Under the pieces are notes generated by a model, which saw only the letters and a list, made by a program, of their open reading frames with translations, made no database searches and was not told the DNA's origin. The translations under genes and the position numbers were made by a program. From Proteromonas lacertae (Eukaryota), in the NCBI GenBank assembly GCA_002245135.1, contig NGBS01001164.1:124001-188000 (forward strand): a stretch of 64,000 nucleotides of DNA. The letters are read 5' to 3'. Below are positions 7,372-64,000 of the stretch, piece after piece. Numbering within the stretch: position 1 is the stretch's first letter; each line of letters begins with the position of its first letter.

Positions 7372-7913
7372 ATGCAAAACAGTTCACTAAGTTTTTATTT
7401 TTTATTATTTATTAGACTTTTTGTTGTAGCAAATGCTCAGCATAATTCTGCTGCTATTGCCAAAGTATAACCACTTTTTTTGTAATTACTTCCTTTAGCA
7501 AATTGCTCAGTTGAATATGACAATTGAATATTGGGGAAGTGACCCAGAACCAGTGTTTGTCAATTCTGTTCCACAAGAGTATTTATTTATTTACAAATAT
7601 TTAATAGAGGTTGGACAGGCGATCATCCAGGGATAGTTCCAGAAAATGACGATAGTGCCGAATTTAACTTTGAAATATTCCCTTACAATGACAATCCACC
7701 AACTATTGAAAATATCGCTGTATCTCAAGCTGAAAGTGCAGAAAATTACAGTGTAATTATTCAACCAAGAGTTACATTACATTACCCCATTAATAAACCT
7801 GGTAGAGAAGCGGATGATAAAGCGATATATGGTTCTCTTACAGTAGATTACTTATGTTATAGTGAAGGATCAGCAACAGTGTTAGTATCAATCTTCTTCA
7901 AATACAAAGCATT

Positions 7914-7975
<62 letters not shown>

Positions 7976-10054
7976 TGAATAGAAGTTCATATATCGCTAC
8001 TTTCAGTTGGAAAAAGAAGTGCGCACCTGGTCCAATCCCGGGATTAACAATCTATGAGAAAGGAAGTAACGGAAGAATGATTGTTCAAGATGGTTATGTT
8101 GATGCAATGTATGATGCAGGTAGTGATTTAAAAGCAAAAGAAGATAAAGGAACTATGAATTATTTCACTGTAGTAAGAGAAGGAGAATATCAATTTGTAC
8201 CAATTGAGTGGAGTTATGAAGTTGGAAATAAGAATTTATCTATTACTTTATCAGGAGACGCTACTGATGATCCAGTTCCAGATAGTATTTACATATATAT
8301 AATTATCAATATAAATAGAAGCTTCAACCGTATTAGAAATCTTATACGAAGGTAAAAACGATATTACAACAACAGTTACTATAATAGGAACAATAACAGT
8401 TGATGAAGAAGTTAGAAGTTTCTCATTCTCATGGAAGAAAACTTACAGTCAAGGTCCAGTTCCTGGTTTTGATATATTATCAGGTTCTCTACATTTTAGT
8501 GATAATTATGCAATTGTTAGTGATGGTATAGTACAGCCACTTTATTTACCAGATAATTCTCGTAAAGTTGTATTAAGTGGAAGTGAAGCATGTATTAATT
8601 TATATATAAGAGGAAGGTTTAATAGTGTCAATTATACTGAGATTAATTTCCAATCTGATTCTACAAGATTGACAATATTTAAATATGGTGATGCTCAAAG
8701 GGGAGGTGTTGGTAAGAGAAGTGAATTATTATCAGTATGTCATGAGTGTAAAGCATCTGGTAGACACAATGTGATTGGTACAGTTACAGGAATTGATAAT
8801 TTAATCAGTCCAATTACATTTGCTTATGAAAAAGAATGTAATGTTGGTAAATATTTAGTTGATATTACTCCAGGAATGTTTGTCCCACATAGAAGTGATT
8901 ATTATGCAGTTAAAAATGGTAAAACTCAACCAGCTTATGGATTTAAGAATCCAACAGTTAAAGCCAGATGGGATGAAGATAAGACTCGATTCTATATGAC
9001 TTCTATAAATAGTTTTGATATTCATCAACCAACTATATATGCATTATATCCTTTTTCTTTCTTTTCTTTCTATTTTTTTATGATTTTTTTTCTTTAACTG
9101 TTGTTGTGTTTTTTTACAGCTGAACAAACTGTATTAGATCCAACTGTATCTGTAATTGGTCATGATGTCACTGAGAATATAATACATGTAGATGCTGATG
9201 GTCCATCAATCGTATTAGAAGTTACTTATTCATGCATTCAAAAAGGTGAATTTCAAGTAATAATGGAAATAAAGTCTGATGGTGGTGAAGAAGGCAATAT
9301 AGTTTTCTCTTGGATTAAAGTGTGTAGACCACATAGCTTTTCTTTCTCTGTTGGTACTTCGTTAGATAGTATGCTTGCTATGATAAATGGAGATAATATA
9401 TCATTTTTTATTTATTTATTTTTTAATTATGTTTTTCTTAATGATTTTGTAAGTTGATCCTAGTATATTATCATTAGCTAAAAATGTAATTGAAGATGGT
9501 GAAGTAAAACCAGAATACTCTAATGAAAAACCATCTGCTGCTGTTACAAGACAAGAATTGGAATCTCGATTTTATATAGCAATATCATTTTTTTTAAATA
9601 ATAATAATATTTTTATGTATCTATTCCTTAATGATTAGTTTAATCAAGAGAAAATTCAACATTGTTATTACATCGTCCACCTACTGTTGTAGTTCAAAAT
9701 CATAAGATATTAGATGCACAATTATTAGGTGATGCTGATGTAAAGAATGGTGTGTCTTTAACAACTAATCCAAAAGAAATTATAGTGAATTATAAGTGCA
9801 AAAAGAGTGGTATATCTAAAGTCGATATTAACTTATTCATTGGTCCAAGTGGTTTACAATATATTCCCATTACATTTAGTGTGATGAAGAATTGTAGAGA
9901 TCCAACCCATTGGAACATTAGATTGCTGAAAGATGTGGTATTATGTGTTGCTATAGTAGTTATATTATTACTGTTATTCCCTTATATAAAATCTTATGGA
10001 AGAAAATGTTGTAAATTCCCTGCAAAGAAGCATGTCTTGGATAAAGATGTATAG
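7372..10054 (+). CDS. Secreted type I membrane protein with repeated Ig-like/beta-sandwich modules; contains three U12-type introns
   Basis: Signal peptide MQNSSLSFYFLLFIRLFVVANA; recurring VxYxC..G....FSWxKxC module; TM VVLCVAIVVILLLLFPYI; one continuous frame obtained with 4 GT-AG and 3 AT-AN introns. Confidence 0.75.
7915..7971. repeat. (TAT)n microsatellite filling a GT-AG intron (7914-7982)
   Basis: About 19 TAT units between GTATTA and GAATAG. Confidence 0.85.
9046..9117 (+). other. U12-type AT-AC intron (72 nt)
   Basis: 5' ATATCCTTTT, branch TTTCTTTAAC (9089-9098), 3' TTTTAC; splicing gives GCA TT|A GCT GAA CAA and joins ORFs 8669 and 9101. Confidence 0.85.
9398..9452 (+). other. U12-type intron with AT-AA termini (55 nt)
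   Basis: 5' ATATCATTTT, branch TTTTCTTAAT, frame restored only by GAT AAT|GTT GAT CCT (intron ends GTAA). Confidence 0.7.
9582..9643 (+). other. U12-type intron with AT-AA termini (62 nt)
   Basis: 5' ATATCATTTT, branch TTCCTTAAT (9624-9632), frame restored by ATA GCA|TCA AGA GAA, which removes the in-frame TAA at 9641-9643. Confidence 0.7.
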
Positions 10055-13200: not shown

Positions 13201-16200
13201 TACAACTTTAAACACTGGATCAGTTGGAGGAGTTTCAGTTAATACAATAGAACGTGATAATAAATCACTTAATATCTGAATACCATTATCTTTAACAAAT
13301 TCTTCAGCATTATAAGGTGATGCTTTACATGTCATAAATAACAATTGTGTACAACTCTCTAAGAATGGAGCTTTCTCTACAGTAACCATCTCTTCAGGTT
13401 TCAACTGTAATAATGGATCTAATAATTGATAACCAGCATATTTATATTGTCCTAATTCTGATGGGAATCTGGTGAATAGAATACTTTGTGTTTTAATAAT
13501 TAATGAGATATTCATTGGATCTGGTCCACCTACTGATGGTCTTAAAGCACTTAATATTTCATAAGCTTCTTGTATCTTTTCAAACATATCTCTTCCTTCA
13601 GGATTCTTATCAGGATGGTATTTTCTAGCTAATTTTCTATATTGTCTTCTAATTGCACTTTCATCATCTTCTGGTCTAAGTTCTAATAGTTCTCTAGCAT
13701 CATCCATTGATACACCACTTGCTTCTTTACTATTTTCTATTCTCCAGGCATCTAATACAGCTCTTAATAAATCAACTGGTGATCTTACAGGCCAACTACC
13801 AAATCTTTGTTCATCACATAAAGCAGCTAAGAAGTAATTATGACAGAATAATTCATCTTTCAATTCTTTATAGATTATAGTTGGTATAGGGCAATAATCA
13901 TATATTAATCTTGGATATTCCTTCAATCTCTTTGATAATTCTCCCAAGTGTTGATTAATCTGTTCTACCAAAGTGTTTTCTCATATCATATTTCCATATT
14001 ACTTCAGGTGTATCTAAATTACCTAAGAATGTCTTACTAAACTCATCAGGACCATAATTCTCTAACATACAGATCATTGATTCAGGTAACATTGTACCAA
14101 GTATACTTCTCTTTGATAATGATACATCTGTATTTAAAGCATCAGCATTGGTTCTGAAATTCTGTAATAAATGAGTCTTTGTTAATAAACTAGCAATTGT
14201 TTGGAAGTTTGAACCTGCATAACTTAATGCAAAATAATAAACACCAGTTAAATATAACTTGGATAATGCTAATGGATTATCTTCAATTAATAATAATAAG
14301 ATTTGAGCAACTTTTTCTATTACTTTTGGATCATTTATTAATAACATTTCACAGATGGATGTTAGTCTTTTATGTTCTGATAATAATCTCTTGGCTTTGG
14401 GAATTGGTCTAATTGGTTTACCTAAAATATCTTTACTTGATAACTTCTTAATCATATTTTCAAATATATTTAATATATTCAAGGCACATTCTATATTTGT
14501 CATTGATGATTGTCCTTCCATTAGGAATTGCCATTTCAACTGTGGAATATCTTTCATTTTAGTCCATTCTAATCCTTCAGCCATGAAGTATGTATTTTCA
14601 TTAATTGTATTCTCTTTATCCAATTGTCGTAACTTCACCATTGTTACTGGTCCTCGTGGAGCTCCAGTTTCACCTAATTTATAATACCATTCACTTACAC
14701 CTTCATCTATTTCTTCTTTCTTTTGTTGTTGTTGTTGTTGATTATCACCTCCTGATGGTGATGGTGATGGTATATCATATCCTTTATCACTAGAAGTACC
14801 TTGTGTTAATAGCAATGTATTAGCTGTTAAAGATGCTTGTAATATACTTGTAACATGCATTGTTTCTTCAGGTTGAGTATGAGCCATTGTCATTAAATCG
14901 ATTAATAATTGAATAGTATCTTCATTCAAACATATATCAATATTACGAGGATGTAATACTAATACACATAATAGCTGTATTAATGTATCTCTTTCTTCCA
15001 TATTTCTAGTTGTTTTGATTAAATATACAATATGTGATGTTTCAATAAATTCACCATATCTCTTCCAATTCTGTTTATACACTGTAGTCATTGCTTTTAT
15101 ACACATTATCTTCAAATCATGGTTTGGTTCTCTTAAATATCTCATATATAACGCATTGAATAATTCAGTAGGTTTAGCAACATTAAAACCATTATTATTA
15201 TCACCATTACTTGAAGAATTCATTAATAATCTAATGAAATGACCATCAACATACAATTCATTGGCTAAACTTGGATATTCAACTGTAAACTCTTGATGAT
15301 TCCATGCTATATTATTAACATCTTCAGTACTTGAACTATTCTGGTCTAATATAGCAATCTCTGATTCTAATGCTGTTCTTAACTCTGACAATGTGTTATG
15401 ATTCCATACATTATCAGGTGATTCATGATCTTCTAATATCATAAAGAAAAATAATGGGAAATTCTGTTGTTTAGTACTATCTTTCCTAATACTTTGTATT
15501 TTATTTCTAAATCTACTTTGAGTCATTGTTGAGACTTCTTCTGGACTTGATATACCTGTACCATCTTCATCATCTTCACCTTTCAATGTATTTCTCTCTT
15601 TCTCCATATATTTCTTTACTTCACTTTCTTTAAGTGGTGGTAAATCTAAATATCTTCTCATTCCTTCAGGTACCATTCTTCTTAATAAATCCATTCCTCC
15701 TTCATGTCCACTCATCCATATACTTACTAAATATCGTGATATAAACCTCTGATCTTCACTTGGAGAGAAGATTGCATAATAAAAGTGTCTTAATAATACA
15801 CCTTCAGATAAAGCTGCATTCTGCATTAATTGAGCTACTCTTGAATCACTCTCTTCTACTATTGTCTGCATTAATAAAGCAGTTGACATTGTAATTGCTG
15901 GACAAGGTGAATGGAATAATGATAACATCTTTTCATGTCTTTCAGATAGTAAGGTCAATAATAATTGCTTGTGACTTGGCTCGGTTTGATCTGGTTGTGT
16001 ACATAATACAGTCTCTAATAGTTCGACTAAAGCTTGAATAATTAAAGCACCATTACCCATTGGTGAGAATTTATCTAAACAATCAATAAATAATGTGTTT
16101 CTAAGTGTTTCATTTCCTAATAATTCAGATCTTACTGTTTTAATAAACTCTTCATTTGCACCTTCATAATTTGAACTACATAATGCATTAATAATTTCAA

Positions 16201-22611: not shown

Positions 22612-23899
22612 CTACTACTGAGTTATTGTCTATGAAAATATATTAACAAATTTATGAAATAAAATAATAATATAGGATGGATAAAAAAGAGAAATAGCAT
22701 TGATAGTTTTAAAGATATAAATAATTTGATAAAAATTTAAAACCTACCTTTGAAACGGCTTAATTTTTGATTATGAAATAAAAAACATCATGACATATTC
22801 TATAGAATATAGAGTATTAAAAAATACTTTAATTAAGTTATATCTTGCTAATTTGTATATCATATTTATTTGGTTGATTAAGTTGTATTATTTTAAATTT
22901 AACAGAATCTGCACAAAGAGTATTGAAAATATATAATAGCGTGCATATACATTACAAATTAATGCTTTAAATTACAATTTCCTGTACTGCGCATAATCTT
23001 ATTTTTAATTTAATATTGTAACGGATTAATTTTTTAATTTTTAGAAAATATTCTATTCTGAAAGACACAAATAACTACGGGTATAACTATCACATCAAAT
23101 TGTCATACAAACATATCATTAAATGTTATTCAAGTGAATTAATACCACAGCGGTTAATCAAATAATAGTATGTTCAATATGAATCGGAAACCACTTCAGC
23201 TGTTCGACATATTTTTAGATAATCTCAGATTTGTAATGGCATCAATATATGTGTATTTTATAATATGGAACAAATACTCATAGTTACGATGCAAAATGAT
23301 AATCAATTGTCCAGTATCACATTATTTATTGTGTTGATACTATTATATCCATATATAATCCAGTAATTAAAATTCTGATTATTCAATTGCAATATTTGCA
23401 CAATATGACTACCCTATTTATAGTTAGTATGTATTATACATTACAAAGCTAAGAATGACTATGATGCAAAATCTAATATACAGTAATAATTCTCTGAACA
23501 AATTATTTTTTGATAGATTTATCCTTACTACATTCATCAAGCGCAGTATTTAATAAATGTAGTTGTATTCTACAGTATTTAGTTCCATTAAGAAAAATGT
23601 GTTTAAGTGAGAAAAGCACCTATTAAACAGCTAATATAAATCTATTTAATATCTATTACCTCGTGTATAATACACATTAGACTACAGAACCGCAATAATT
23701 TTAATAAACTACGAATATAAGAAAATACTCACTAATCTTCGTCGTAGTCTATGAGTACAGGTGGCATCTATTTCATACTTAAGGCATCCATCCAAATGTT
23801 AAATTTGATGATAATTGGATCCTTTTGAAACAGCCAACAAAAAAGTTTTTAAAAATATTTGTAACCGATTAATTCTTGGTTATTTTTTTTGTAATACTT

Positions 23900-24382
23900 A
23901 TGAAATCAAATAAAAAAAAGTATACCACTAGTGCACATAAGAACCTAACCCAGAAGGATTGGCTGGCTTTATTTGAGAGAGTTCAAGAAGTCCGAAACAT
24001 CACTGAAGTGGCAAATGATACAGGTATTAGACGTCAGATATTATCAGAAAAATATAACTTGTGGAAGAAATATGGCAATGAGTACCTATATTCTAAAACA
24101 TGGTCCAACCGTATATTTACTCAAGAAGAAGAATATGAGCTGTTTCTTCAGATCTGGAATTACGATTATACGGTAGATAAAACTCAAAAGTTTTGTGATT
24201 CAGTAATTGCGAAACTTGCAACAGAGTTTTATAAAAATATTTCTAAAGAGCGTGTTGTAAAGCCATTTAAAGTAAGTCTAGGATGGATTATAGACTTTAG
24301 ACACAGGTTTGGAATTAAATTTAGAGCTTCAAAAAGCTACTATTTACAATGGGAAATAATCCAAGCGAGAGGATGTGAATAG
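23900..24382 (+). CDS. pogo/Tc5/CENP-B-type double HTH DNA-binding protein, no DDE domain
   Basis: NITEVANDTGIRRQILS (psq-like HTH); RIFTQEEEYEL...FKVSLGWIIDFRHRFGI (HTH_Tnp_Tc5-like); intronless. Confidence 0.7.
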   Translation: MKSNKKKYTTSAHKNLTQKDWLALFERVQEVRNITEVANDTGIRRQILSEKYNLWKKYGNEYLYSKTWSNRIFTQEEEYELFLQIWNYDYTVDKTQKFCDSVIAKLATEFYKNISKERVVKPFKVSLGWIIDFRHRFGIKFRASKSYYLQWEIIQARGCE

Positions 24383-24899: not shown

Positions 24900-25424
24900 T
24901 CATGATGAACCTAGACTATTTATTTGTTGTTCATCATTTAGATGAGATGGCTTTACAATTGACCACTTATAATATTGACCTCTTTTCATTTCTTCTATAA
25001 CATCATGTCTAAATCTAAAATCATGAAGCCAACCTGAACTTACTCGAAATTCTTTGACTTTTCTTCTTTCTGAGACATGTATAAATGCTTGTGATGCTGT
25101 TTCCTTAATAAGATTGTCGTGCACAGGGCCTCCACAACTATTTACAACGTAGCTATTCAGAATCTCTATAATAATTCTTGTTTCTTCCTCATTAGAAAAT
25201 ATCCTATTCCATTTACCCCTTGTCTCTGACGCTTCTTCTAAGAGACCACTATTTTTCCATATATGATACTTTTTGGCCAGTGTTTGCCTCCTGATGGAGT
25301 ACTTCTTAGAAACTTTTGAGAGATTTGATTTTTCTATTTCTTGAAACAGCTGTAGCCATTCGTTAGATGATATAAGGTAAGAATCTGTTGATCTTCGAAT
25401 TCTTTTTGGCTTATCTCCGCTCAT
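24900..25424 (-). CDS. Paralogous pogo/Tc5/CENP-B-type double HTH protein, no DDE domain
   Basis: NLSKVSKKYSIRRQTLA; RIFSNEEETRI...PVHDNLIKETA...FRVSSGWLHDFRFRH; colinear with 23900-24382. Confidence 0.7.
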   Translation of the reverse strand: MSGDKPKRIRRSTDSYLISSNEWLQLFQEIEKSNLSKVSKKYSIRRQTLAKKYHIWKNSGLLEEASETRGKWNRIFSNEEETRIIIEILNSYVVNSCGGPVHDNLIKETASQAFIHVSERRKVKEFRVSSGWLHDFRFRHDVIEEMKRGQYYKWSIVKPSHLNDEQQINSLGSS

Positions 25425-25857
25425 TCTTCAAAATTTATTGAACGAGATATTCTATTGGTTCATCAATATTTATTGACATCATGTTACGTCAATAAATCCA
25501 AAAAAGTGCCATGATAAAAGTAATGTACAGATAGCATCTAAAACATGATATTTGAAGAGACATTGTTATATAATAATGAACCATTCTATCAAATTCTCAA
25601 AATTATTTAAGATAACTGCATTGACTTAAAGATTTTTTCATTTCATCTCATTTCATCACTATATACAATTAAGAGAATTATTCATTGATCAGTCTAGCTT
25701 AATCTGTCTAACACACCTACTATTTTTAATTTCTATTCTATACGCTATACATCACATTAACTAACAGATATTCATTTTGATTTGATCGTATAGATGCTAA
25801 TAGAAGATAATAAATCAAAAATTTCAAAATAGAATTAAATTTTATTCTTTTTGTTTT

Positions 25858-27025
25858 ATGTCCTTTTTAGACATATATATAGATCCTGAAATAAGATGGA
25901 GTAGTTACTATCGTCGAAGTAACAAATCTAAAGATAAAAAACACATTTTATGCTTTCCAGATCACTTAATAAGTGGACATCGAGTATGAAAAGATGAATA
26001 ATATGTTATATGAATAGAATACTGGGTATTGTGGTAGACCAATAAAAGTTTACATAAATAGTTATTTAAGTGTTCCAACTTTAATAATTTGTAGTAGAAT
26101 ATACGAATATAATGGTTCAAAGACAGGATTGAATATAGATGATTTAATTCCTAAATCTCAATTTGAAGACAGAGATATTCCTTTCTATTTTGGAGTTTCA
26201 GTTGTATTTAAGATAATAATATAATTAAAATAGATTGATGGTAAAGAATATATAATAAATGATAAGTTACAATCCTGGAAATTTAATACATACCTTCAAA
26301 GAGTTGGTCCATTATACTGTTTAGTAATTTATGGATTGATATTATGTGATAATCAACATTACTACAAAGTGATGTGTAAAACAATCTCTCCTTTATTTCA
26401 TATCTATTCATCTCGTAGATCTTTCTCTGGTTTAAATTGTACAAATGAAAATTTGAATATGGAAGTATATAAAAACACACCAATTCCCCAATATTTAAAG
26501 ATTAAATTATCAGAGACTGATTCATTGATTCTATCTCCTCTTTTAATCAAAAATTTCCCATTTTTAAGATATAAGAATGCAACTAAACAGATGAAGTTGT
26601 ATGACTCACTTCCTGAAATATTACTTCGTTTATCGAATGATTGTAATAATAATGATGATCCTAATGCTATAATAAAAACAGAGAATAATCCTTATCCATT
26701 TCCAGATTCAGCACAAATCATCAAATATGTTGAGAGTTTTAATGATTTTCGAGAATATATGATGGATATTCTTAATTCTGAGCCTGTAGTAACACAATAT
26801 GTCTATTCTCAATATGGATATAATGTCAAACTAAGAAAACTTGGATTGACTAAAACTTCAAAAGAAAGAGAAGAAATATCCTATTTAGGTGGAAGTATGA
26901 ATCAAATGTATGAAAGAGCAACAAAAGGTATATATTATTTAGATAGATATGGAAATAAGATAATGTGTCATCCTCCAGATATTCTCCGTGAATACTATGT
27001 AAACCAAAATTTATCAAATGAATAA
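25858..27025 (+). CDS. Hypothetical protein (~367 aa), tandem copy 1; introns 25984-26017 and 26204-26233
   Basis: Spliced frame MSFLDIYIDPEIRWSSYYRRSNKSKDKKHILCFPDHLISGHRNTGYCGRP...KTISPLFHIYSSRR... Confidence 0.8.
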
Positions 27026-27281: not shown

Positions 27282-28449
27282 ATGTCCTTTTTAGACATAT
27301 ATATAGATCCTGAAATAAGATGGAGTAGTTACTATCGTCGAAGTAACAAATCTAAAGATAAAAAACACATTTTATGCTTTCCAGATCACTTAATAAGTGG
27401 ACATCGAGTATGAAAAGATGAATAATATGTTATATGAATAGAATACTGGGTATTGTGGTAGACCAATAAAAGTTTACATAAATAGTTATTTAAGTGTTCC
27501 AACTTTAATAATTTGTAGTAGAATATACGAATATAATGGTTCAAAGACAGGATTGAATATAGATGATTTAATTCCTAAATCTCAATTTGAAGACAGAGAT
27601 ATTCCTTTCTATTTTGGAGTTTCAGTTGTATTTAAGATAATAATATAATTAAAATAGATTGATGGTAAAGAATATATAATAAATGATAAGTTACAATCCT
27701 GGAAATTTAATACATACCTTCAAAGAGTTGGTCCATTATACTGTTTAGTAATTTATGGATTGATATTATGTGATAATCAACATTACTACAAAGTGATGTG
27801 TAAAACAATCTCTCCTTTATTTCATATCTATTCATCTCGTAGATCTTTCTCTGGTTTAAATTGTACAAATGAAAATTTGAATATGGAAGTATATAAAAAC
27901 ACACCAATTCCCCAATATTTAAAGATTAAATTATCAGAGACTGATTCATTGATTCTATCTCCTCTTTTAATCAAAAATTTCCCATTTTTAAGATATAAGA
28001 ATGCAACTAAACAGATGAAGTTGTATGACTCACTTCCTGAAATATTACTTCGTTTATCGAATGATTGTAATAATAATGATGATCCTAATGCTATAATAAA
28101 AACAGAGAATAATCCTTATCCATTTCCAGATTCAGCACAAATCATCAAATATGTTGAGAGTTTTAATGATTTTCGAGAATATATGATGGATATTCTTAAT
28201 TCTGAGCCTGTAGTAACACAATATGTCTATTCTCAATATGGATATAATGTCAAACTAAGAAAACTTGGATTGACTAAAACTTCAAAAGAAAGAGAAGAAA
28301 TATCCTATTTAGGTGGAAGTATGAATCAAATGTATGAAAGAGCAACAAAAGGTATATATTATTTAGATAGATATGGAAATAAGATAATGTGTCATCCTCC
28401 AGATATTCTCCGTGAATACTATGTAAACCAAAATTTATCAAATGAATAA
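27282..28449 (+). CDS. Hypothetical protein, tandem copy 2 (identical to copy 1)
   Basis: Duplicate at offset +1424. Confidence 0.8.
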
Positions 28450-28705: not shown

Positions 28706-29864
28706 ATGTCCTTTTTAGACATATATATAGATCCTGAAATAAGATGGAGTAGTTACTATCGTCGAAGTAACAAATCTAAAGATAAAAAACACATTTTATG
28801 CTTTCCAGATCACTTAATAAGTGGACATCGAGTATGAAAAGATGAATAATATGTTATATGAATAGAATACTGGGTATTGTGGTAGACCAATAAAAGTTTA
28901 CATAAATAGTTATTTAAGTGTTCCAACTTTAATAATTTGTAGTAGAATATACGAATATAATGGTTCAAAGACAGGATTGAATATAGATGATTTAATTCCT
29001 AAATCTCAATTTGAAGACAGAGATATTCCTTTCTATTTTGGAGTTTCAGTTGTATTTAAGATAATAATATAATTAAAATAGATTGATGGTAAAGAATATA
29101 TAATAAATGATAAGTTACAATCCTGGAAATTTAATGGATACTTACATAAAGTTGGTCCATTATACTGTTTAGTAATTTATGGATTAATACAAAGTGATAT
29201 TGTGAATCACTACAAAGTGATGTGTAAAACTGTTTCACCTCCATTTCATATCTATTCATCTCGTCGATGTGTATCAGCTGGATGTGAAAGAGATCGAAAA
29301 TTAGATATTGAAATATACAACCCAACTACAATAATTCCAAAATACTTAAAAATCAAACTATCAGAAAATAATTCATTAATTTTATCTCCTCTTTTAATCA
29401 AAAATTTCCCATTTTTAAGATATAAGAATGATATTGAAATAAATCTAAATGATACACTTCCTACAATGTTTCTTCATTTATTAAAAGAAAATACTGATAA
29501 ATGTAATAGAATTGTAAATACCGAAATAAATCCTTATCCATTTCCAGAATCAGCGAAGATTATAAAATATGTAGAAAAATTTAATAATTTTCGAGAATAT
29601 ATATTGGATATTGTTAATTCAGAACCAATAGTAACACAATATGTTTATGCAAAATATGGAGATGATGTTAGAATAAGATCACTTGGATTGACTAAAACCT
29701 CAAAAGAAAGAGAAGAAATATCCTATTTAGGTGGAAGTATGAATCAATGGTTTGAAAGAGTTGCTGAAGGTATATATTATTTAGATAGATATGGAAATAA
29801 GATAAGGGCACAACTTCCAGATATATTAACAGGTTATGTAAATCAATCTTCTAGTAATAAATAA
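28706..29864 (+). CDS. Hypothetical protein, tandem copy 3 (5' identical, 3' diverged)
   Basis: Identical to copy 1 up to 29135, then a diverged paralogous sequence (VSPPFHIYSSRR...). Confidence 0.8.
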
Positions 29865-31390: not shown

Positions 31391-32700
31391 ATGGACAAAA
31401 CTAGTGGTCTTACTGAAGAATCAAAATTATTAGCCAAATTATGTTATTGTATACTTATATTTTTATCCCTAGTTAATCAATGTGAAATAAATCGAATATA
31501 TGATGTTTTCACTAAATCTTTAGCTCCGTATTTTATTTTAGTAATACTCTATTCCTTAGAAAAAAAGATAAACTGTCTTTCACAGAATTTAATAAATTTT
31601 GTGATGGTAAACAATTTCATACTGTAGTCAGATTTTTTGAGAAATATAGTATAAGAATATATTAACACATACCTAGAATTCTTGAACTGGAACCATTTTT
31701 TTCAAATTATAGTAATTTTAGGGTTTCTTCGTTTAAATATTTCTCTTAACAGTATATAATATATAATATTAACTCTTAAATAGTGGTTACAATGATATTA
31801 AACATTCAAGATAACTCATCATTATCATCTGAAGATACTTCTCGCTTATTTATAGAAATTGGAGGAAGTGATGTTGCTACAACAATAGAAAGGAAGAAGC
31901 CATTTAATTATCCCTTAGCTTTTTCTAATTTATATGCTTATATAGTTAATCATCCAGAGTATTATTTGAAATTAACAAGATATCAAAATCAGTTGTGTCT
32001 TTTATTCTTTAATCAGCACCGTATTAATGAAATGCATCAACGGCCTAATAAAATGCAGTACTTAGAGCAATACCAATTAAAGAATGGTAAAAGCTATCCG
32101 ATAGATTCGTGTATAAATATTATAAAAAGATATTTAATAACGCATGATCCTTATCCTTACAGATATGATTATGAATGTAAACCTCACGATGAAACACAAT
32201 TAATGATTAAGTTGTTTCCTTATATTAAATTAATTAGTAGTAGATCAGAATCATTCAATAGAATAGAAAATCCAATGATACAGTCGATCAAAAGACATGG
32301 TGAAATGAATTCAGCAAGATATGGTAACTCAGCTTTATTGAAGCGAGGTAATGGTGCTGGTGGTAATGGAAATTGTAATGCAAAACGTAAAACAATGCAT
32401 CATGTGTATGGTGTTGAATCATTAAGTAGAAGTGAATTAGTGAATAATACATCCTCACCTAGATCATATGATGAAGGTGATAGTATTACTAATAATTGTG
32501 CTGTAAATAAAATATCCACTCATCCATCTGAAGAGAAGAGAAATGACGAAAATACTACTGATAGTGTTCCTCCTTTGAGATTGACTAATTCAATCTTACA
32601 TCGTTCTTCTTTATCATCTATGCATGGCAGATCCACCTGGAAGTCTTCATTGCAACAATCTTTTCTTCCAGGTGCAGTTCATGAGGATAATTGTGTGTAA
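31391..32700 (+). CDS. Degenerate EF-hand (NCS/calcineurin-B-like) family protein, paralogue A
   Basis: Spliced N-terminus LAKLCYFNQCEINRIYDVF..LSFTEF..LNWNHFFQ; 4 short introns; RYLITHDPYPYRYDY motif. Confidence 0.6.
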
Positions 32701-33142: not shown

Positions 33143-35717
33143 ATGGTATAACTTATTCATGTAATATATTTTTTATAGCCACTTCAATTGATTATCAAGG
33201 TATAAAAATATTATTTGAACTTTTTTTATATTTCTTTTTCTAGAAAAAAATCTGTGCCAGAAGTGAGAGAGTTAAATGTGTAGATATACATCCACAATTC
33301 CCATGGGTAATATCTTCACTCTACAATGGTACTGTTGTAATTTGGGATATAAGTAAGGAAGAGATGGTCAAATCATTTGAAATGTGTAAAGAACCTGTTC
33401 GTTGTGTAAAATTCGTTCCAAGAAAGCAATGGATCGTAGCAGGAGGAGATGATTTCAATATGAGAGTATACAACTACAACACAATGGAAAAAGTATATAA
33501 ATATTAATTTACTTATTGTATATAGATAAAAGTTTGGAAAGCACATAAAGATTATATCCGATCAGTTGATGTTCATCCTTCAGAACCACTTATGTTATCC
33601 TGTTCAGATGATTTCTTGATCAAATTATGGAACTGGGAACAAGATTTCACATGTGTAAGAGAATATGAATCACATAGTCACTTTGTGATGCAAGTACAGT
33701 TTAATCCAAAAGATCCAACAATATTTGCCTCTTGCTCATTGGATAAAACTATTAAAATATGGGATATTAACACAAATGCACCTCACTTCACTATGTCTGG
33801 TCATAGTAAAGGTGTAAATTGTCTTAATTTTTACCCAGCTGGTGATAAACCATATTTAGTTACAGGTGCTGATGATAGAGTATAATATATTATATTATCT
33901 ATATATTTCATTAATAATTAGACTGCTAAAATATGGGATTATCAAACCAAAACTTGTGTTCAAACATTAGAAGGTCATTCTGATAATGTAGTAACAGCTG
34001 TATTTCATCCCAAATTACCATTACTTCTAACAGGCAGTGAAGATGGAACTGTAAGAATATGGCATAGTACAACTTTTAGATTAGAAACTACATTGAATTA
34101 TGGTATGAATCGTGTATGGACTATTTCAGTACATCCAACCAGTAGTTTAACTGCAATTGGTTATGATGATGGCACTGTGGTGGTTAAACTAGGAAATGAT
34201 AATCCAATTATAAGTATGGATAAATCTGGTAAGTTATTATGGGCTGAAAATACTGATATTATTTCTGGAAATGTGAAAGGTGTTGTTGCTGAAAGTGGAA
34301 CTGGTGAAGGTGATAAATTACCTATTAATACTAAAGAAATATCTTTTTTTATTATTTTTAAATACATTATAATTTTCCATTAACTCTATTTGTTTTTTAC
34401 TTAGGAAAATGTGAATTATATCCTCAATATTTAGCTCACAATAGCAATGGCCATTTCTTCTTAGTTTATGGTGATGGTGAATATACAATCTATACAGGCA
34501 GAGTATTGAGAAGTAAATGTTATGGTCCAGCTGTAGAAGCAGTATGGTGTAGTAATGGTACTGGTGATTATGCAATTAGAGAATCATCAACACAAATCAG
34601 AATATATCAAGACTTTAAGGAAATTAATAGTTTCCAATCACCAACATCAATAGAGAAATTATTTGGAGGAGTTTGCTTAGGTGTTCAATGTGATGGTTTT
34701 ATATTATTTTATGATTGGTATACATGTAAATTAATAAGAAGAATCGATGTACAATGTAAGAATATATTCTGGTCTGAAGCTGGTGATATGGTCAGTTTAG
34801 TTTGCCAAGATACATTTTTCATTTTACACTATGATAAAGATGTAGTAGCATCAGCAGTAAAAGGTGAAGTTAGTAATGAAGGAATAGAAGGATCTTTTGA
34901 ATTATTATATGAAATAGCTGATAATGTAAAGAGTGGATTATGGGTAGGAGATTGCTTTTTATTCACTAATAAGAAATCATTGAATTATTGTGTTGGTGAT
35001 AATGTTATTAATGTTAATCATTTACAAAGTTCAATGACTATTTTAGGTTATTTAGCAAAAGAAAACAGAATATTCTTAGTTGATAAAGAGAAGAATATTA
35101 TTTCCTATGAAATATTGAGTAATTTCTTAGATTATCAAACATATGTATATCGTAAGGAGTTTGATGCAGCTAATGAATTATTAGGTGAAATCCCAGAAAC
35201 ACATTATGACAAAATAGCTAGATTTTTAGAAGGTCAAGGTTATAAAGAAGAAGCATATGCTGTAGTAAGAGATTATGATCATAAGTTCTCTTTAGCTATC
35301 GAATTGAATAAATTAGAAGATGCACAGAAAATGATTGAAAGTAATGTGTTTGATGATGAAGGTACAGAAGAATCTATTATGAGATGGAAACAGTTGAGTG
35401 ATTTAGCTTTAAGTAGAGCTAATTTGAATTTAAGTGTGTATTGTGCTGAAAAGGCTGATGATTTGAGTGGATTGTTGTTGATTTATAGTTGTACTGGTAA
35501 TAGAGAAGGTTTAAGAGGAGTGGCTGAAAGAGCATTGAAAGCTAAAGAGTTTAATACTGCATTTGTTAGTTATTATACAATTGGAGATTGTAATGGATGT
35601 ATAGAAACATTATTAGCTAATAATAAAGTTGCTGAAGCAGCTATTTTTGCCAGAAGTCACTTGCCTGAGCGTGTTGATGAATTAGTGAAGTTATGGAAAG
35701 AGTCTATTACAAAGTAA
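33143..35717 (+). CDS. COPB2: Coatomer beta' subunit (Sec27/COPB2); first exon is only the ATG; one U12 intron; 3' end uncertain
   Basis: MPLQLIIKKKICARSERVKCVDIHP..WD40 repeats..LNYGMNRVW..KELGKCELYPQ..WKQLSDLAL..EAAIFARSHLP. Confidence 0.93.
34339..34400 (+). other. U12-type AT-AC intron (62 nt) in beta'-COP
   Basis: 5' ATATCTTTTT, branch TTCCATTAAC, 3' TTTTAC; splicing gives conserved KE|LGKCELYPQ. Confidence 0.9.
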
Positions 35718-40964: not shown

Positions 40965-42031
40965 ATGTCTAAAAATCGTCGATTCTATATATCAAACGCT
41001 GCAATATCAGGATGTATCAGTGGTATGCAAAAGCAAACAATATATTATATAGGTGCTGCTCAAACTATCATTCTACAACCATTAGATATGATAAAAACAT
41101 CATTTCAAGTATATACTGGTAAATTCAAATCAAAAACTATTTTGTCTACTTTTAAAGATGTAGTGAAACAAGAAGGCTTTTTAAGATTGTGGAAAGGTTT
41201 GACACCAGCATTAGTAGGAAATACAGCCTCCTGGGGTTTATATTTTGCATTTTATAACAAAGGCAAATCTCTGTTATTACAATACAAACACAAGTACAAT
41301 ATGACCTATTATATCTAATAGAGACAAGCTAACCACTATGGAACATCTTATAACTGCATATTGTGTAGGTTCAGTATGCTTATTATTCACAAATCCAATA
41401 TGGTTAATAAAGACAAGAATGGAAATACAATCGTGATATCATTTTAATATATTAATATATATGCATATACAATTCCTTAATAATATTTACTGCTTTACCC
41501 AAATCGCATCATTTTTACACAGGTTTAGTTGATGCAATAACGAAAGTATATAGTCAAGAAGGGATAAAAGGTTTTTATAAAGGAATAATTCCATCACTAA
41601 TATTAGTATCAAATGGAGCAATACAATTTATGACTTATGAATTTTTAAGAGTTCGAGCAGTGAATAAACATAACGAAATAGTATATATATAACATAAATT
41701 TTCTTTTTTTAAATATATATATTTTGTATAGACTTACTTAGATTCATTATATATGGGTGGAATATCCAAGGTTATTGCCTCTACCACTACATATCCATAC
41801 CAAGTAGTTCGTTCTAGATTACAACAGATAGGTGGAATTGAGAGATATGGAGGAACTTTAAAGTGTATAATGAAGATAGTTAATACAGAAGGTTTTTTGT
41901 CTTTATATAATGGAATACTCACTAATTTACTGAGAGTTATTCCTAGTTCGTGTATTTTATTTATGTCTTATGAGATGATAAACAAACATTTGTTGAAGAA
42001 TAGAAATGAGAAATATCATGAAGGTTTATAA
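40965..42031 (+). CDS. Mitochondrial carrier, folate/FAD transporter (SLC25A32/Flx1)-like; one U12 intron
   Basis: Three PxDxxK-type repeats: QPLDMIKT, NPIWLIKTRM, YPYQVVRSRLQ; SWGLYFAFY; SNGAIQFMTYE. Confidence 0.85.
41436..41490 (+). other. U12-type AT-AC intron (55 nt)
   Basis: 5' ATATCATTTT, branch TTCCTTAAT (41473-41481), 3' TTTAC; TCG TG|T GCT TTA removes a TGA and restores ...YTGLVDAITKVYSQEGIKGFYKG. Confidence 0.88.
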
Positions 42032-42202: not shown

Positions 42203-45200
42203 ATGAGAGGAGGATATAGCAAATTAACTGACTCTATCACACCAGGGATGAGTATAACCATCAATGAACACTCATCAGTACCAAAGTCTTTTGCCCAAAA
42301 TCCACAGACTGATGGATATGACTTAATTATGTCTCATGTCTCCTATACAATCACTGATATACCGGACATAGAAGATACTCATATCCCTAACTTGTTTAAC
42401 GACCTTATTTATGCAAGTAAGTTAATAGCTAGACAACAGAAGATGAAAGCAAAACCTGTTTTAACTGATCTTAATCTTATATTTTCAGCAGGTACTTCTA
42501 CGCTTGTATAACAATTATTTGTATATTCTATAATTTAGATTGTCGGTACTCCAGGATGTGGATCTACATCACTTTTAAATGCATTATATGATAATTTGAA
42601 TAACAAATATCTATCTGGTAAAATAATGTATAATGGCAAACAAATATCAGATTATAAGAATTGGAAGAGTATTGCCTCATATTGTAGTCAATTCGATTAT
42701 CACAATGCATTATTAACAGTGAAAGAAACGTTAGAATTCGCTAGACAATGTCAATGTGGAAATGATACAAAAATTGATTTAGTATATTTATGTATTATAT
42801 ACTGTAGACTTCTCTTGCAGAAAAAGTGGATGATTTATGTAAAACTATTGGTTTAGAGAGATGCAAAGACACTTATATAGGTGGAATGTTGGTAAAAGGA
42901 TGTAGTGGTGGTGAAAAGCGAAGAGTTACAGTTGGTGAAATGTTATTAGGTTTTCACAAGATATTATTATTAGATAAATTCAGCACAGGTTTAGATAGTG
43001 CAATAACAAAAGATATAATTAAATTCCTGACTAGTTATGCAAGAGAAATGAACAATATTGTTATTACTGCATTATTACAACCAGATCCTGAGATTATTCA
43101 ATACTTTGATCAATTGATTATATTAGAAGAAGGTTCTATTATTTATTGTGGTACTCCCTTTGACGCTGTTACTTATTTTGAGAGTATTGGATATAAACTA
43201 AATGGAGAGTCTGATATTGGAAGTTTTATAAGTAATATTGGAAATGAAGGATTTAGAACATTAATGAAGAAAGTATTATTATTATTATTATTATTACATA
43301 GAGGGAAGCATTATTGAAATCAAGTTCATCTACAAAAATGACTGAAAGTACTACCAGTATGGAATCAAAGTCAATATTTGCAAGGAAGAAGAATAAATCC
43401 AAGTCAGTCTTATACAGTAGTTATCAATCTTGTAGAGGTTTGAAATATGATAGAGTATATATATATATATCATCTTTATAGAATTTAGTAAAAAAACATG
43501 AAATTGTCCATAATTATGAAGTATCAAAGTATTATTTAACAGAAGAAAGAGAGATTGATATGTCGTTAAAGAATAAATTACAACCCTTAGAAGAAGGTCC
43601 AAATAAAGATGCTTATAGTAAACAATATTCACTTTCATTCTTCTCAATGTTATATACAATATTCAAAAGACAAACAAGATTGACACTTCGTAACAAATTA
43701 TATATTATTGGAATATTGATTGGTTATATAATTGCTGGTGTATTTCTTGGATTTGTATTTTATGATATTACTAAAAACACTAATAAATTGACAATATTTG
43801 GAGTGTTTTTGTTTTATTTGGTTCTTATTGCTGTTGGACCAGCTGCTGAATTTGGTACAATCATGGAACAAAGGAAGGTATTGGCAAAACAAATAACTGG
43901 TAAATATTTCTCCATTTCTACATTCATTATTTCATCATTAATAGCTCAATTACCATTTATGATATTATTACCTCTATTTGGTGGTATTCCAATATACTTT
44001 ATATCTTCATTATCAAAGGCAAATCATTATAAACATCTCTTAATCTATTGTCTTGGTGGTATTGCTACTTCATTAGCTGTTACACCATTATTTAGATTGT
44101 TTATGTTTGGTTTCTCGAGTGAATTTGTAGCTTTAGGATGTTTACCATTTGCTGTGTTTATTATGACTAATTTCACTGGTTATTCTGTTCCTTATGATAA
44201 AATATCATGGATATTAAGATGGATTTATTATCTTAATCCATTAAGTTATGGACATAAAATATTAGCTGTTAATGAATTCTTAAGTGGTGATTATGGCCTT
44301 GAAGGTAAAGCAGATTTAGCTGCAATGTCATTTCCAACTGATGATAAGAATATGTGGCAATGGTTTGTCAGTTTAATTGTAATGCATATCATATGTATAT
44401 ATTATTAGTTATAATTTATATATTATTATGTTTGAAATAGATACTGCTTTAACAATATTTGTATTACAGTGTCGTAGATGGGCTGCTGAATATTCAGTTA
44501 TTGCTTCTGATAAAGAAATCGATGTTGATGAAGCAGAAGATATCAGTTATTCAATACCGCCAGGACAAGAAGTATCACTAGTATGGAAGGATTTAAATGT
44601 GTATGTAAATACAGATAAAGGTGAAAAACAGTTGTTATATAATATTAGTGGATATGCAAAACCAGGTACATTAACAGCTTTAATGGGAGCAAGTGGTGCT
44701 GGTAAGAGTACATTATTAGATGCATTATCACATACATCCACAAAGACAAAAGTAACTGGTGATATATTATTCAATGGACAAAAATTATCATTAAATACAC
44801 AAAGTCATGTATTAGGTTATGTTGAACAAGCTGATAATTTACCAACTAAAGAGACTGTTGAAGAAGTATTGTTTTTCAATGCAAGATTGAGATTAAGTAG
44901 TAAATTGAGTGATGATGAAGTTAGAGCAAAAGTTGATGAAATGATAAAAGTATTATCATTAGAAGATTATCGTAAGATTATTATTGGTAATCCAGGAAGT
45001 GGTATTTCAATGGCAATTCGTAAATTGATAATGACAGGTATTGAACTAGTAGCAGATCCAGCAATACTATTCTTAGATGAGCCAACTACAGGTTTAGATA
45101 GTAAAAGTGCATTAATGGTAGTAAAAGTATTGAACAGAATTGCTGTTTATGGAAAATGTGTAGTTTGTACAATCCATCAACCATCTTATGAGATATTTCA

Positions 45201-52538: not shown

Positions 52539-53267
52539 TTAATTCTTTATAGCAGAATCAAATAACCAACCTTCATCTACATCATATTCTAATACACTAA
52601 GCTCATTTCCACCAATTTTACTATAAGCTAAAGGAGCTGATTTCCATTTCAAACCATTTGATACTAAATACTTATCCATACTATCAAATCTATTTAACAT
52701 TTATTAATACATCATAAAATATACAATCTTCCTATATTCATTACATAAGTAAATATCGATCTACATGGAATTCTTACTCTTATTACTTTGGCTTTAGGTA
52801 ATTTTACTACTTTTAAACCGATTTCTTCTAATTTTTCTTTTTGTTCATATGCATCTTTTATTGCTATTCCTACACTCCATACTTGCTCAGATGCAGGGGT
52901 TTTATCTGTATGATATACATCAATATATGCTTCATATTTACGATTATCGCTTAAACCAGCTTTTCTCAAAAGAACATCAAGTTCATTATATGCATAACTC
53001 ATTGATTCGAATGTTCCAGTTCGAGTTATAAATCTATTAAACCATTATAATATCAATATTATACACATAATCCATTTCTTTCATCTCAATAACATCTCCA
53101 ACTGCTTCTGTTCATTTATTAAGGATTCAAATTTAACAATACATTGGTAAATGCAAAAAAGGATATGAAAAATAACTCAAATACCATAAACTACTCACTC
53201 CAACAATTGAAATCACTGCACATACAACAGTTATGATTGGTAAGAAGTAAATAATAATCATCAACAT
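52539..53267 (-). CDS. N-terminally anchored GyrI-like (TEX264-like) small-molecule-binding protein; one U12 intron
   Basis: Hydrophobic N-terminus; VYHTDKTPASEQVWSVGIAI..GLKVVKLPKAKVIRVRIPCRS; first intron AT-AC. Confidence 0.6.
53110..53166 (-). other. U12-type AT-AC intron (57 nt)
   Basis: Minus strand 5' ATATCCTTTT, branch TCCTTAAT, 3' GAAC; TTT TC|A GAA GCA GTT; the nested GT-AG alternative gives a stop. Confidence 0.88.
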
Positions 53268-59647: not shown

Positions 59648-62600
59648 ATGGATGATCGAATAGATGAATATGATATAGGTAACCCTATAGGTATGTTATA
59701 TCTCGATCTATTGTTAGGAAAGGGCAAGTTTGCTGTTGTTTATAAAGCTACACGTAAAAGTGATAATGAGACAGTTGCTTTGAAGAAGATATCTTTTCAT
59801 GATATGGTTGATGAAAAATCAAGTATAAGCAGTTTGTTATTTTAATAGGAGAAAAATGTTTGAAAGAAGTAAGACTATTACAATCATTACACCATCCGAA
59901 TATAGTTAATTATATAGATAGTTTTATACATGAAGATCATTTAGTGATTGTAGTTGAATGGGCTGGAGCTGGTGATTTAAAAAGACAAATAAAGAGGGCA
60001 CAAAAGAAAAATGCTAGATTCAGTGAAAGGGTGATTTGGAAGTATTTCAGTCAAATGGCTGAAGCAGTAAGGTATATGCATTCTAAAAGAGTTATGCATA
60101 GAGACTTAAAACCAGCCAATGTATTTTTAACAGAGGATGCCACTATAAAAGTAGGTGATTTAGGTTTAGGTAGAATGTTAAGTGATAAGACAATGGAAGC
60201 ATATTCCAAAGTTGGTACACCATTATATATGGCTCCTGAAGTATTACAAGGCAGTGGATATGACTTTTCTTCAGATATCTGGTCATTAGGTTGTATCTTG
60301 TATGAATTAGCAGTATTAAAATCTCCATTTAAAGAAGACAATATAAATTTATATGAACTATTCCAAAAGATAAGTAAAGGCGAATTTAAAGCATTACCTG
60401 ATTATTTTGGTAAAGAATTAAAAGGTTTAGTAATTGACATATTACAATTAGATCCAAAGAAAAGACCAACCATCGAACATGTTTGTGATGTTGCAAACCA
60501 ACAGTTTGAGTTTCATAGTCAGCATCGTCAAGTAAATCCTGAAGAACACAATGATAGTCATATGATGTCTGAAACTAAAAGAGATGATAGTAACAATGAA
60601 GAAGAAAAGAAACAAGAACAACCTCCTCCTCTTTCTCAACCAAGACAAGAACAAGAACAACAACAACAACAGAAACCTGTTGAACAACTACCTCCACAAA
60701 CCAAATCAGAAGAAACAAAGGCAGAGACTAAATCTGAATCTATTCAACAACATCCTATTCAGCAAAAACCATCTCCTACTCAGCAGCAACAACAACAACA
60801 ACAACAAGAGCCATTGAAATCAGAACCAATTCTACAGCCACAACAGCCAATACAACGACAACAACCAAAACAATCACAAAACCCCTTAAAATCAGAACCA
60901 TTACCTCCAAATTCAGAAACAAAAGACAATGAAAGACCAACATCTGAAGAAAAGAAGATAAGTCCAATAGAACTAAGAAGAATTAGTGAATTGAAGAATA
61001 TTGATTCATCACCTCCCTTATCTGCTACACCTGGTAGTGCAAATAGCAATGGAAGTGATGGTAATAATAGCGAAAGAGATGATAATACTGTAATAGTAAA
61101 ACCATCACCACGATCTGATATTGACGCAATCCCACCACAATTAATCAAAGATATTCCTACTCATATAGAAAAAGAAGAACCTGAAGTTATTCTTAAACGA
61201 CAGTCTTCATCAAGAATGAGGAAATCTTCATTACTTGCTGAAGAAATCAAAGTAGGAGAAACTGATAAAGTGGTAGTAGATGAAAATAACAATAATTACA
61301 ATAGTAAAATATCACCTAATTATAGTGGTAATGAAAAAGACATTCCATCATCCTCAGGTTCATCATCTCATAGGAACTCTGTCAAACATCATAAATCTCA
61401 TCGTCATTCTACTAAACATAATAGTACAGATAAAGACGATAATAATAATAATAATAATAATAATAATCCATCTGATTTACCAATAGCCAGTGATAAAGAA
61501 GAAGTAAAATTAGAAAGTGGTAGAAGTAGTGTAATTAGCAATAATAATAATAATAATAATAATAGTAACAGAGGTTCAATTGTTGAACCAAAAATAAGTA
61601 ATAGTACTAGATCAAGTGTGATTGAAGAAAAACCAAGATTATCACAAATAAAACAACAACAACAACCAATTATATCTAAAATTGAGAGTGTTAAAAATGT
61701 AAAAGAAGAAGAAGAAGAGGAAAAGAAAAAAGAAGAATTAATAAAAGAATCACATAGTATTCCTACTAAACCATCCATTAATATTACTCCATCAGTTGAA
61801 TCTAAACCAGTATTAAAGGCAAGTGTAAATATCCCAAGTCCAAAGAAATTACCATCTGGAGATGATAGTATTAATATAATTGAATTATCAGAGAAATGTA
61901 TTCAAGAATTAAAGATATTAAATTATGAATTTCAATATTGTGCTGCTAAGTATATATTATTATTATTATTGTATAGAAATATTCAACCATTTCGTCATGA
62001 ATACTTTCAAGGTGTTTTCTTAGATGAAACAGAAAAACGAAGTGCAGCTGATCAATTTCTATCATTATGTAAATGGTTATTTTCAATATTAGAAGTGAAT
62101 TTCGATATAAGAGAAAATACTTCAACTGTTGATAAAATGACTCAACTCTGTATAAATATGCAGAATATTGGCATTTCCAGAGAATTAATTAGTTCAATAT
62201 CTCCAGCTTCCTTATGTAAAGGATATGGAGAATCAGTTGTTACTGTATTATATTATATTTTAGAACAATGTTTATATAAACAAAATATAAAGTATATTAT
62301 TATTACTTACATTTATTTATTTATTGTCTTATAGATTTGGAGTGCAATTGGAATATCCTGATGAGGAAGATGAAAGAAGAGTCTGTGAAATATTAGAAGA
62401 AGAAGATAATGAAGGTGATATATTCCCTGATTATATAGAATATGATGATTATGGAAATGATAGTGAAGATGAAGAATTTGATAGTATGGAATTTTCCAAA
62501 AATTATACTGAAATTGATCCAAAGTTGTGGAAAGAAGAATGTGAAAAAGTATATCCCAAATTAGAGCAAAGGATGTTGCAATCAAGAGTAATAAGATCTG

Positions 62601-63330: not shown

Positions 63331-64000
63331 ATGGAAGATCGAATTGATGAATACGATATTGGGCATGCTATAGGTATATCTTTTTGTCTAATGGATTTAG
63401 GTAAAGGTCAGTATGCCGTTGTTTATAAAGCTGTGAGAAAATGTGATGGAAGTGTAGTTGCATTGAAGAAGATATCTCTTTTAGATATGATTGATGAAAA
63501 ATCAAGTATTTGCTAGTCTTTATATTTTCTTAGAACAAGCATGTTTAAAAGAAGTAAATCTATTAAAAAATATGCATCATCCAAATATAGTAAATTATAT
63601 TGATAGTTTTATTCATAAGAAACGTTTAGTGATAGTTGTTGAATGGGCAGGAGCTGGTGATTTAAGAAAACAAATAACATATGCTATAAAGAAGAAAGCA
63701 AGATTCAGTGAAAGAGTAATTTGGAAGTATTTCAAACAAATTGCAGATTCAGTTAGATATATGCATTCTAAACGAATAATGCATAGAGATTTAAAACCAG
63801 CCAATATATTTCTAAAAGAAGATGGAACAATAAAAGTAGGTGATTTTGGTTTGGGAAGAACGTTAAGTGAAAAGACATTAGCAGCGTATTCGAAGGTAGG
63901 TACTCCCTTATATATGGCTCCTGAATTACTATTAGAAAAAGGATATGATTTCTCATCCGATGTTTGGTCTTTAGGCTGTATATTATACGAATTAGCAGCT
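63331..64000 (+). CDS. Second NEK6/7-like kinase, tandem paralogue, 3'-partial
   Basis: Same two intron positions as the 59648 gene; HRDLKPANIF, GDFGLGR, VGTPLYMAPE. Confidence 0.9.

Follow-up and report, generated by a model that had tools for sequence, protein, structure and literature searches.

Two short segments of one Proteromonas lacertae gene, each opening with an ATATC donor and closing in AA, are probably (we would put this at about 0.7, judging from sequence) minor-spliceosome (U12, A-type) introns, with 3' ends that would be set by ordinary minor-spliceosome rules. They are further cases of an already published class of AT-AA introns, from a little-studied stramenopile lineage. 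Both were found in a 64,000-nucleotide stretch of contig NGBS01001164.1, referred to here as the window, and the coordinates of the host gene and of the other minor-type introns of the window are collected in Table 1.

The window is about 28% GC and its genes are compact. Its 14-3-3 protein is 87% identical to a Logan protein and 76% identical to one from Blastocystis sp., the nearest named match of plain length. All six minor-type introns of the window start with A, and no convincing U12 intron starting with GT was seen there. Forty major introns from the same window, picked by hand for low GC (which makes comparisons with them partly circular), have a GTAT donor in 39 cases, a median length of 33 nt, and ends in TAG (38) or GAG (1); a CTTRAY word occurs in only one of the forty. 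Also present are three tandem copies of one ORF on the plus strand (26234-27025, 27658-28449 and 29082-29864, the first two sharing their first 110 residues) and two neighbouring, closely similar protein kinase genes (59815-62334 and 63491-64000, plus strand), which we take to be NEK-like. Two similar ORFs that face each other (23873-24382, plus strand; 24900-25427, minus strand) presumably have a helix-turn-helix-like start and are possibly transposon remnants.

The host gene has an open frame of 743 codons in the script model, from about 7499 to 10054; the script models gave no solution for its start. The predicted protein contains about five repeats, each 130-150 residues long, followed by a putative membrane helix and then a short tail. 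Pfam assigns no family to pieces of the host gene or to three homologues, atlas matches are all below 0.9, and a homologue search with the exon 8315-9043, restricted to longer proteins, accepted none of 1383 candidates. A HMMER search yields 12 relatives, many of which are ORF calls on genomic contigs that run into introns. A structural model of one homologue, P0010 (pLDDT 69, pTM 0.34), suggests tandem beta-sandwich repeats; Foldseek matches to that model have TM scores of 0.10-0.22 and name no family. At 7914-7982 (plus strand) the gene carries a 69-nt in-frame GT-AG intron that is mostly a TAT repeat, and reading through it produces a poly-Tyr run that ORF callers would keep.

The last three introns of the host gene are all U12-like, an AT-AC intron (intron 0) being followed by the two AT-AA introns (introns 1 and 2). 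The three stand in a row at 9046-9643 on the plus strand, at differing positions of the repeats. P0008 and P0009 have intron 0, and P0016 probably does; P0011, P0013 and P0014/P0038 lack it. The distribution of intron 0 takes two changes on a tree of 12 orthologue pieces, a single clade is not rejected (p-AU 0.34), and gain versus loss of the intron is not polarised by this tree.

Table 1. Exons and introns of the host gene, with the comparison introns (positions in the window)
Feature	Position	Strand	Length, phase	Basis and remarks
Upstream exons of host gene	7499-7578, 7608-7913, 7983-8284, 8319-9045	+		GT-AG introns between; script model, homologues
Intron 0 of host gene, putative U12-type, AT-AC	9046..9117	+	72 nt, phase 2	Predicted branch A 9097, 20 nt to end; orthologous intron read through in P0008/26/27
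Exon separating introns 0 and 1 (9369-9397 disputed)	9118..9397	+		Codon identity in close relative, exon-like composition
Intron 1, putative U12-type, AT-AA	9398..9452	+	55 nt, phase 0	Branch word 9437-9442, predicted branch A 9441, 11 nt to end
Exon between the two AT-AA introns	9453..9581	+	129 nt	Aligns to family repeat profile
Intron 2, putative U12-type, AT-AA	9582..9643	+	62 nt, phase 0	Branch word 9627-9632, predicted branch A 9631, 12 nt to end
Last exon	9644..10054	+		End of repeat 5, predicted membrane helix, short tail; 87% identical to P0046; translation
Comparison AT-AC intron in beta'-COP	34339..34400	+	62 nt	Spacing 17; joins without a gap to solved beta'-COP sequences; Pfam
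Comparison AT-AC intron, mitochondrial carrier gene	41436..41490	+	55 nt	Spacing 10; frame; PF00153
Comparison AT-AC intron	53110..53166	-	57 nt	Spacing 9; AA at 8 and AG at 11 out of frame (three ends frame-tested)

The splice signals of introns 1 and 2 are those described in the sequence-only reading of the window. The donor ATATCATTTT stands at both 9398 and 9582, with a single mismatch, at +6, to the extended U12 donor RTATCCTT(T) as the sequence is read, and it differs from the GTAT[ATG] donors of the 39 correctly placed major introns. The branch words TTTCTTAAT and TTCCTTAAT both fit TTCCTTRAY near the 3' end. After CTTAAT, intron 1 runs for 10 nt and closes in AA at 9451-9452, and intron 2 runs for 11 nt and closes in AA at 9642-9643, which puts the ends 11 and 12 nt from the putative branch adenosines, within the usual U12 spacing of about 11-13 (the range for U12 introns in general is about 10-20 nt). 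Base composition falls to intron level from 9398 and again from 9582. The donor followed by CTTAAY 30-60 nt downstream occurs four times in the window against a mean of 0.19 in shuffled sequence, and with a looser branch word seven times against 0.28; in neither case does any of 100 shuffles reach the observed number. The loose match at 32133 (minus strand) was dropped as antisense within ORF 31780-32700, leaving the six introns that had been named from the sequence. A search for Rfam matches found no snRNA genes in the 64-kb window, and two metagenome contig scans for a related locus returned 194 and 38 pattern matches, none of them confirmed.

The reading frame limits where these introns can end. 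TAA is in frame at 9450-9452 in intron 1 and at 9641-9643 in intron 2. From the ATATC donors, use of an AG at 9453, 9638, 9648 or 9650 leads to a stop in 4-18 codons, so that the AG at 9452-9453 is indeed out of phase with the donor at 9398, and the nearest in-frame AC or AG ends, 9518 (AC) and 9706 (AG), would both cut out conserved repeat sequence. The earlier assertion that no AC or AG at a suitable position restores the frame holds for the ATATC donors, but it overlooked two other solutions: enumeration of frame-keeping joins shows that the AG at 9452-9453 can also pair in frame with a GT at 9369 or 9354.

For intron 2, orthologues support the position of the junction itself. P0046, the sole homologue found for the last exon (the identity in Table 1 is over the query), and its cluster mate P0047 have, at the protein level, a Tyr immediately before the residues that start at 9644; in P0047 four Phe, with A-free codons, precede that Tyr. 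The relative's intron would thus end in TAC or TAT at the place of the window's TAA; this anchors the position of the intron 2 junction and indicates that the last base varies. The alignment of these proteins supports a difference between window and relative in the class of the last base only (A versus C/T), at one conserved junction. A repeat profile made from 17 family repeats, built without repeat 5, gives the AA end of intron 2 the best score among six ends whichever option is used for intron 1, by 0.7 bits over the next (CA at 15) and by 19 bits over the first in-frame AG.

For intron 1 it is the donor that is well supported, again by conservation of the encoded protein. In a close relative (P0020/P0021/P0027), at about 84% identity, 19-20 of the last 21 codons ahead of 9398 agree with the window, and the ten just before it are identical at 9-10 positions; next comes I-S, and then only 1 of 12 positions is matched. 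More distant orthologues (P0011, P0014 and P0038, 34-41%) also close in I-S-F plus low-complexity residues at the position equivalent to 9398. I-S or I-S-F at this position in three lineages (ATA TCN) is what an ATATC donor in phase 0 is expected to give, and with the exon conserved up to 9397 this recurrence argues well for the donor at 9398. Conservation of position is thereby seen at the protein level for the donor of intron 1 (P0020/21/27, P0011, P0014/38) as it is for the acceptor of intron 2 (P0046/47). The 3' end of intron 1 is presumably at 9452, where the frame alone places it. The repeat profile does not separate this AA end (64.5 bits) from a GT-AG intron (65.8) or from an AT end at 9458, 17 nt from the branch (64.0).

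Intron 1 might be something other than AT-AA, either a major GT-AG intron at 9369-9453 (or 9354-9453) or a minor intron that ends in AT at 9458. These readings all keep the frame, GTATG donors are present in 4 of the 40 hand-picked major introns, the profile gives the GT-AG reading 1.3 bits more than AA and the AT reading 0.5 bits less, and the end assigned to intron 1 comes from frame. A GT-AG intron would, however, cost the protein ten codons of which 9-10 are conserved in the relative, against 1 of 12 within intron 1, and it would leave the recurrence of the ATATC donor position in distant orthologues to one side. It would also be a strange major intron, 85 nt long, ending in AAG, with its first 29 nt exon-like and conserved in protein. 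Its disputed 24 bases are exon-like by 7.4 bits, a value that none of 26 major introns attains, and among the 40 none ends in AAG and only two exceed 60 nt (these sets having been chosen for low GC, the comparisons are partly circular). As for the AT end at 17 nt, it would bypass an in-frame AA at the optimum spacing. We consider both forms of this alternative unlikely, while mixed products from intron 1 are possible, since the spliceosome must skip an AG that lies one base past the AA.

Another explanation for the AA ends, and a very improbable one, is that one or both are assembly errors, as from a lost or miscalled C, or from a collapsed GG that would otherwise give AT-AG in intron 1. At least one single-base error seems to be present in the assembly: a long DnaJ-domain gene on the minus strand, which we take to be RME-8/DNAJC13-like, has a one-base frame break without an intron near 13970 (about 13955-13980), likely a homopolymer error and the one case in 18 ORF pairs examined, though a homologue search gave no confirmation of this break. 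An indel within an intron would leave the frame intact, and the relative does have TAC or TAT at intron 2. Against this, two independent errors are needed to clear both AA ends, and since the coding sequence, which runs to tens of kb, shows just one such break, a wrong call at any specified position should be far rarer than the share of AT-AA among human A-type introns, which is about 3% (6 of 204, in the part of PMC13602164 available). Two AT-AA introns among six has a probability of 0.012 at that human share and of 0.11-0.18 at a share of 10-13%, a rough estimate for plants and Physarum; with both introns in one gene and the window selected for oddness, these figures do not amount to a raised AT-AA rate.

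How the AA ends come to be selected can be approached through the spacing from branch adenosine to 3' end, which, for the six A-type introns in the order of Table 1, is 20, 11, 12, 17, 10 and 9 nt (the 17 is fixed by the beta'-COP alignment; the 9 and the 10 rest on frame). Eight rules were scored on these introns. A fixed distance of 11 predicts one of the six ends, and so does a fixed distance of 12; the A-N (A followed by any base) nearest to 11.5 predicts four, the first AC or AG from 9 also four, and the first A-N from 8 or from 10 five each. Two rules predict 6/6, "first A-N from at least 9 nt" and "AC within 9-20, else first AA"; both were framed after seeing the data, the six introns do not separate them, and the end of intron 1 had itself been picked as the first in-frame A-N. 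None of the six introns has an A between 8 nt past the branch and its terminal A (post hoc, joint p about 7e-4 given the A content of each intron). An AG is bypassed in three of them, at 12, 17 and 11 nt, consistent with AT-AG being disfavoured, as stated in the available part of a review of U12 introns (PMC3584512). In relatives, read-throughs suggest 11, 12 and 13 nt for the intron that has 20 here (P0008, P0026, P0027) and 20 for intron 2, which has 12 here (P0047); these spacers, back-translated from protein with codons assumed, run over A-free Phe codons. The pattern suggests that distance, acting along with the A at -2, sets a minimum and a window and is not a fixed measure. In the mechanism we propose, U11 and U6atac would read the ATATC donor, U12 would pair with CTTAAT, and the 3' end would fall at an A-N no closer than about 9 nt to the branch adenosine; the last base of an A-starting intron would, on a light check, be left nearly free.

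The sequence-only reading had proposed relaxed choice of the 3' dinucleotide combined with a branch-distance ruler. A free last base agrees with TAC or TAT in the relative where the window has TAA. A fixed ruler, by which the cut falls 11-12 nt past the branch adenosine whatever the sequence, is a far poorer description and we give it hardly any credence: it does fit both AA ends, which lie at the published optimum, and non-AC ends may be tolerated solely at that optimum, but the other spacings are 9, 10, 17 and 20, the intron at 53110-53166 has an out-of-frame AG at 11 and requires the AC at 9, and the protein-derived spacings of relatives move between 11-13 and 20 in both directions. The beta'-COP intron at 17 nt goes far toward refuting it, assuming the branch to be at the consensus word. 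It is also quite improbable, if marginally less so, that ends are heterogeneous, with several nearby A-N sites in use (AA at 11 and AG at 12 in one intron, AA at 12 and AT at 13 in the other), one product making protein and the rest being degraded, so that the apparent rule reflects frame and not chemistry. Competitor sites do lie one base off in both introns, and U12 3' site choice is described as error-prone in the available parts of PMC3584512 and PMC1874599. The A-free spacers that precede the used A in all six introns, on the other hand, suggest selection against upstream competitors, and such selection implies that the first A is the one used.

One candidate with a bearing on a first-A rule was set aside. 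A minor intron at 44386-44467 (ATATCATATG...AC) was tried as AT-AC and rejected in favour of a GT-AG reading, 44395-44440, which keeps a membrane helix (hydropathy 2.35 versus 0.86). The gene there is an ABCG-type transporter on the plus strand, in which ATATCATATG lies nine bases upstream of the GT-AG intron and a CTTTAAC word and the in-frame AC at 44467 lie in the next exon. The arrangement may be a decoy, the relic of a minor intron, or an alternative one; if genuine, the AT-AC intron would pass over an AT at 12 and use the AC at 15, contradicting the first-A rule. Weak donor look-alikes occur at 2255, 56020, 54483, 29455, 7038 and 1073.

Much of what is seen here has precedent. Dietrich et al. 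(2001 and 2005) reportedly found a constraint on the distance from branch to 3' site, with other last bases tolerated after a 5' A. Tolerance of AT-AA ends, noted in the sequence-only reading, is on record in a published AT-AN class of A-starting minor introns (PMC8280824, PMC10639083), and AT-AA is more frequent in animals and plants than any other non-canonical minor end (PMC10639083); MSH3 shows a switch between AT-AA and AT-AC from human to mouse (PMC1557818), all of this according to the parts of those papers available. The introns described here resemble animal and plant AT-AA introns in their ATATC donor, CTTAAY-type branch, AA at 11-12 nt and last-base switch between orthologues. They differ in having A at +6 of the donor in both, in their share (2/6 versus 6/204 in human), in being short (55-72 nt), and in that two are adjacent in one gene. 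The U12 review, in its available part, gives an optimum of 11-13 nt, tolerance of the last base after a 5' A and disfavour of AT-AG, with all of which the window agrees; the window differs in suggesting a reach of 17-20 nt over A-free T runs, while the review describes U12 introns as having no distinct polypyrimidine tract (PMC3584512).

Two lineages invite closer comparison. In Physarum polycephalum, with its transformed U12 system, non-canonical ends are likewise frequent and AT-AA makes up 27% of them (bioRxiv 10.1101/2020.10.12.336362, available part). The branch there is TTTGA in a narrow window of 9-12 nt, whereas the window has the canonical branch word and spacings of 9-20, so that its introns are not of the Physarum type. 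Blastocystis ST1 has 253-346 minor introns, mostly AT-AC (77%), according to the accessible parts of PMC5608401 and PMC10639083; ST1 has all four minor snRNAs, and U11, U12, U4atac and U6atac are reported for both ST1 and ST7 (PMC5608401, same part). The likeness lies in mostly A-type introns (A-starting in 6/6 here) that are short and often in phase 0 (49% there, 3/6 here); unlike it, the window is about 28% GC and has major introns of median 33 nt. The available portions of PMC5608401 and PMC10639083 mention no AT-AA ends or spacing rule for Blastocystis, and those of PMC12129017, PMC2831892, PMC1874599 and PMC11347168 hold no AT-AA data for the lineage. The literature listings searched and the papers named here hold no report of AT-AA in Blastocystis-like protists or of a first-A rule.

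A broader picture can be drawn, though only tentatively, and as a whole we think it rather doubtful. The minor spliceosome of this organism would handle almost only A-type introns, would begin scanning about 9 nt beyond the branch, stop at the first A and cut one base on, with any last base accepted. This would create an "A-exclusion zone", the counterpart of the AG-exclusion zone in major introns, together with a genome rich in AT-AA and AT-AT introns, spacers free to drift between 9 and 20 nt, and a fast turnover of minor introns (this gene has three in succession, one of which three orthologous lineages lack).

In practice, annotation will misplace introns of this kind, as the in-frame GT-AG decoy of intron 1 illustrates. 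Relaxation of the last base is already known, so that any novelty would lie in a rule of minimum distance plus first A, and in the three adjacent minor introns. Should "first A past 9 nt" prove true throughout a genome in which short A-type introns number in the hundreds, that genome would be a data set for telling scanning from a window plus preference. The patchy distribution of adjacent minor introns among orthologues is relevant, too, to whether Blastocystis has gained minor introns recently, a question raised in the available part of PMC10639083.
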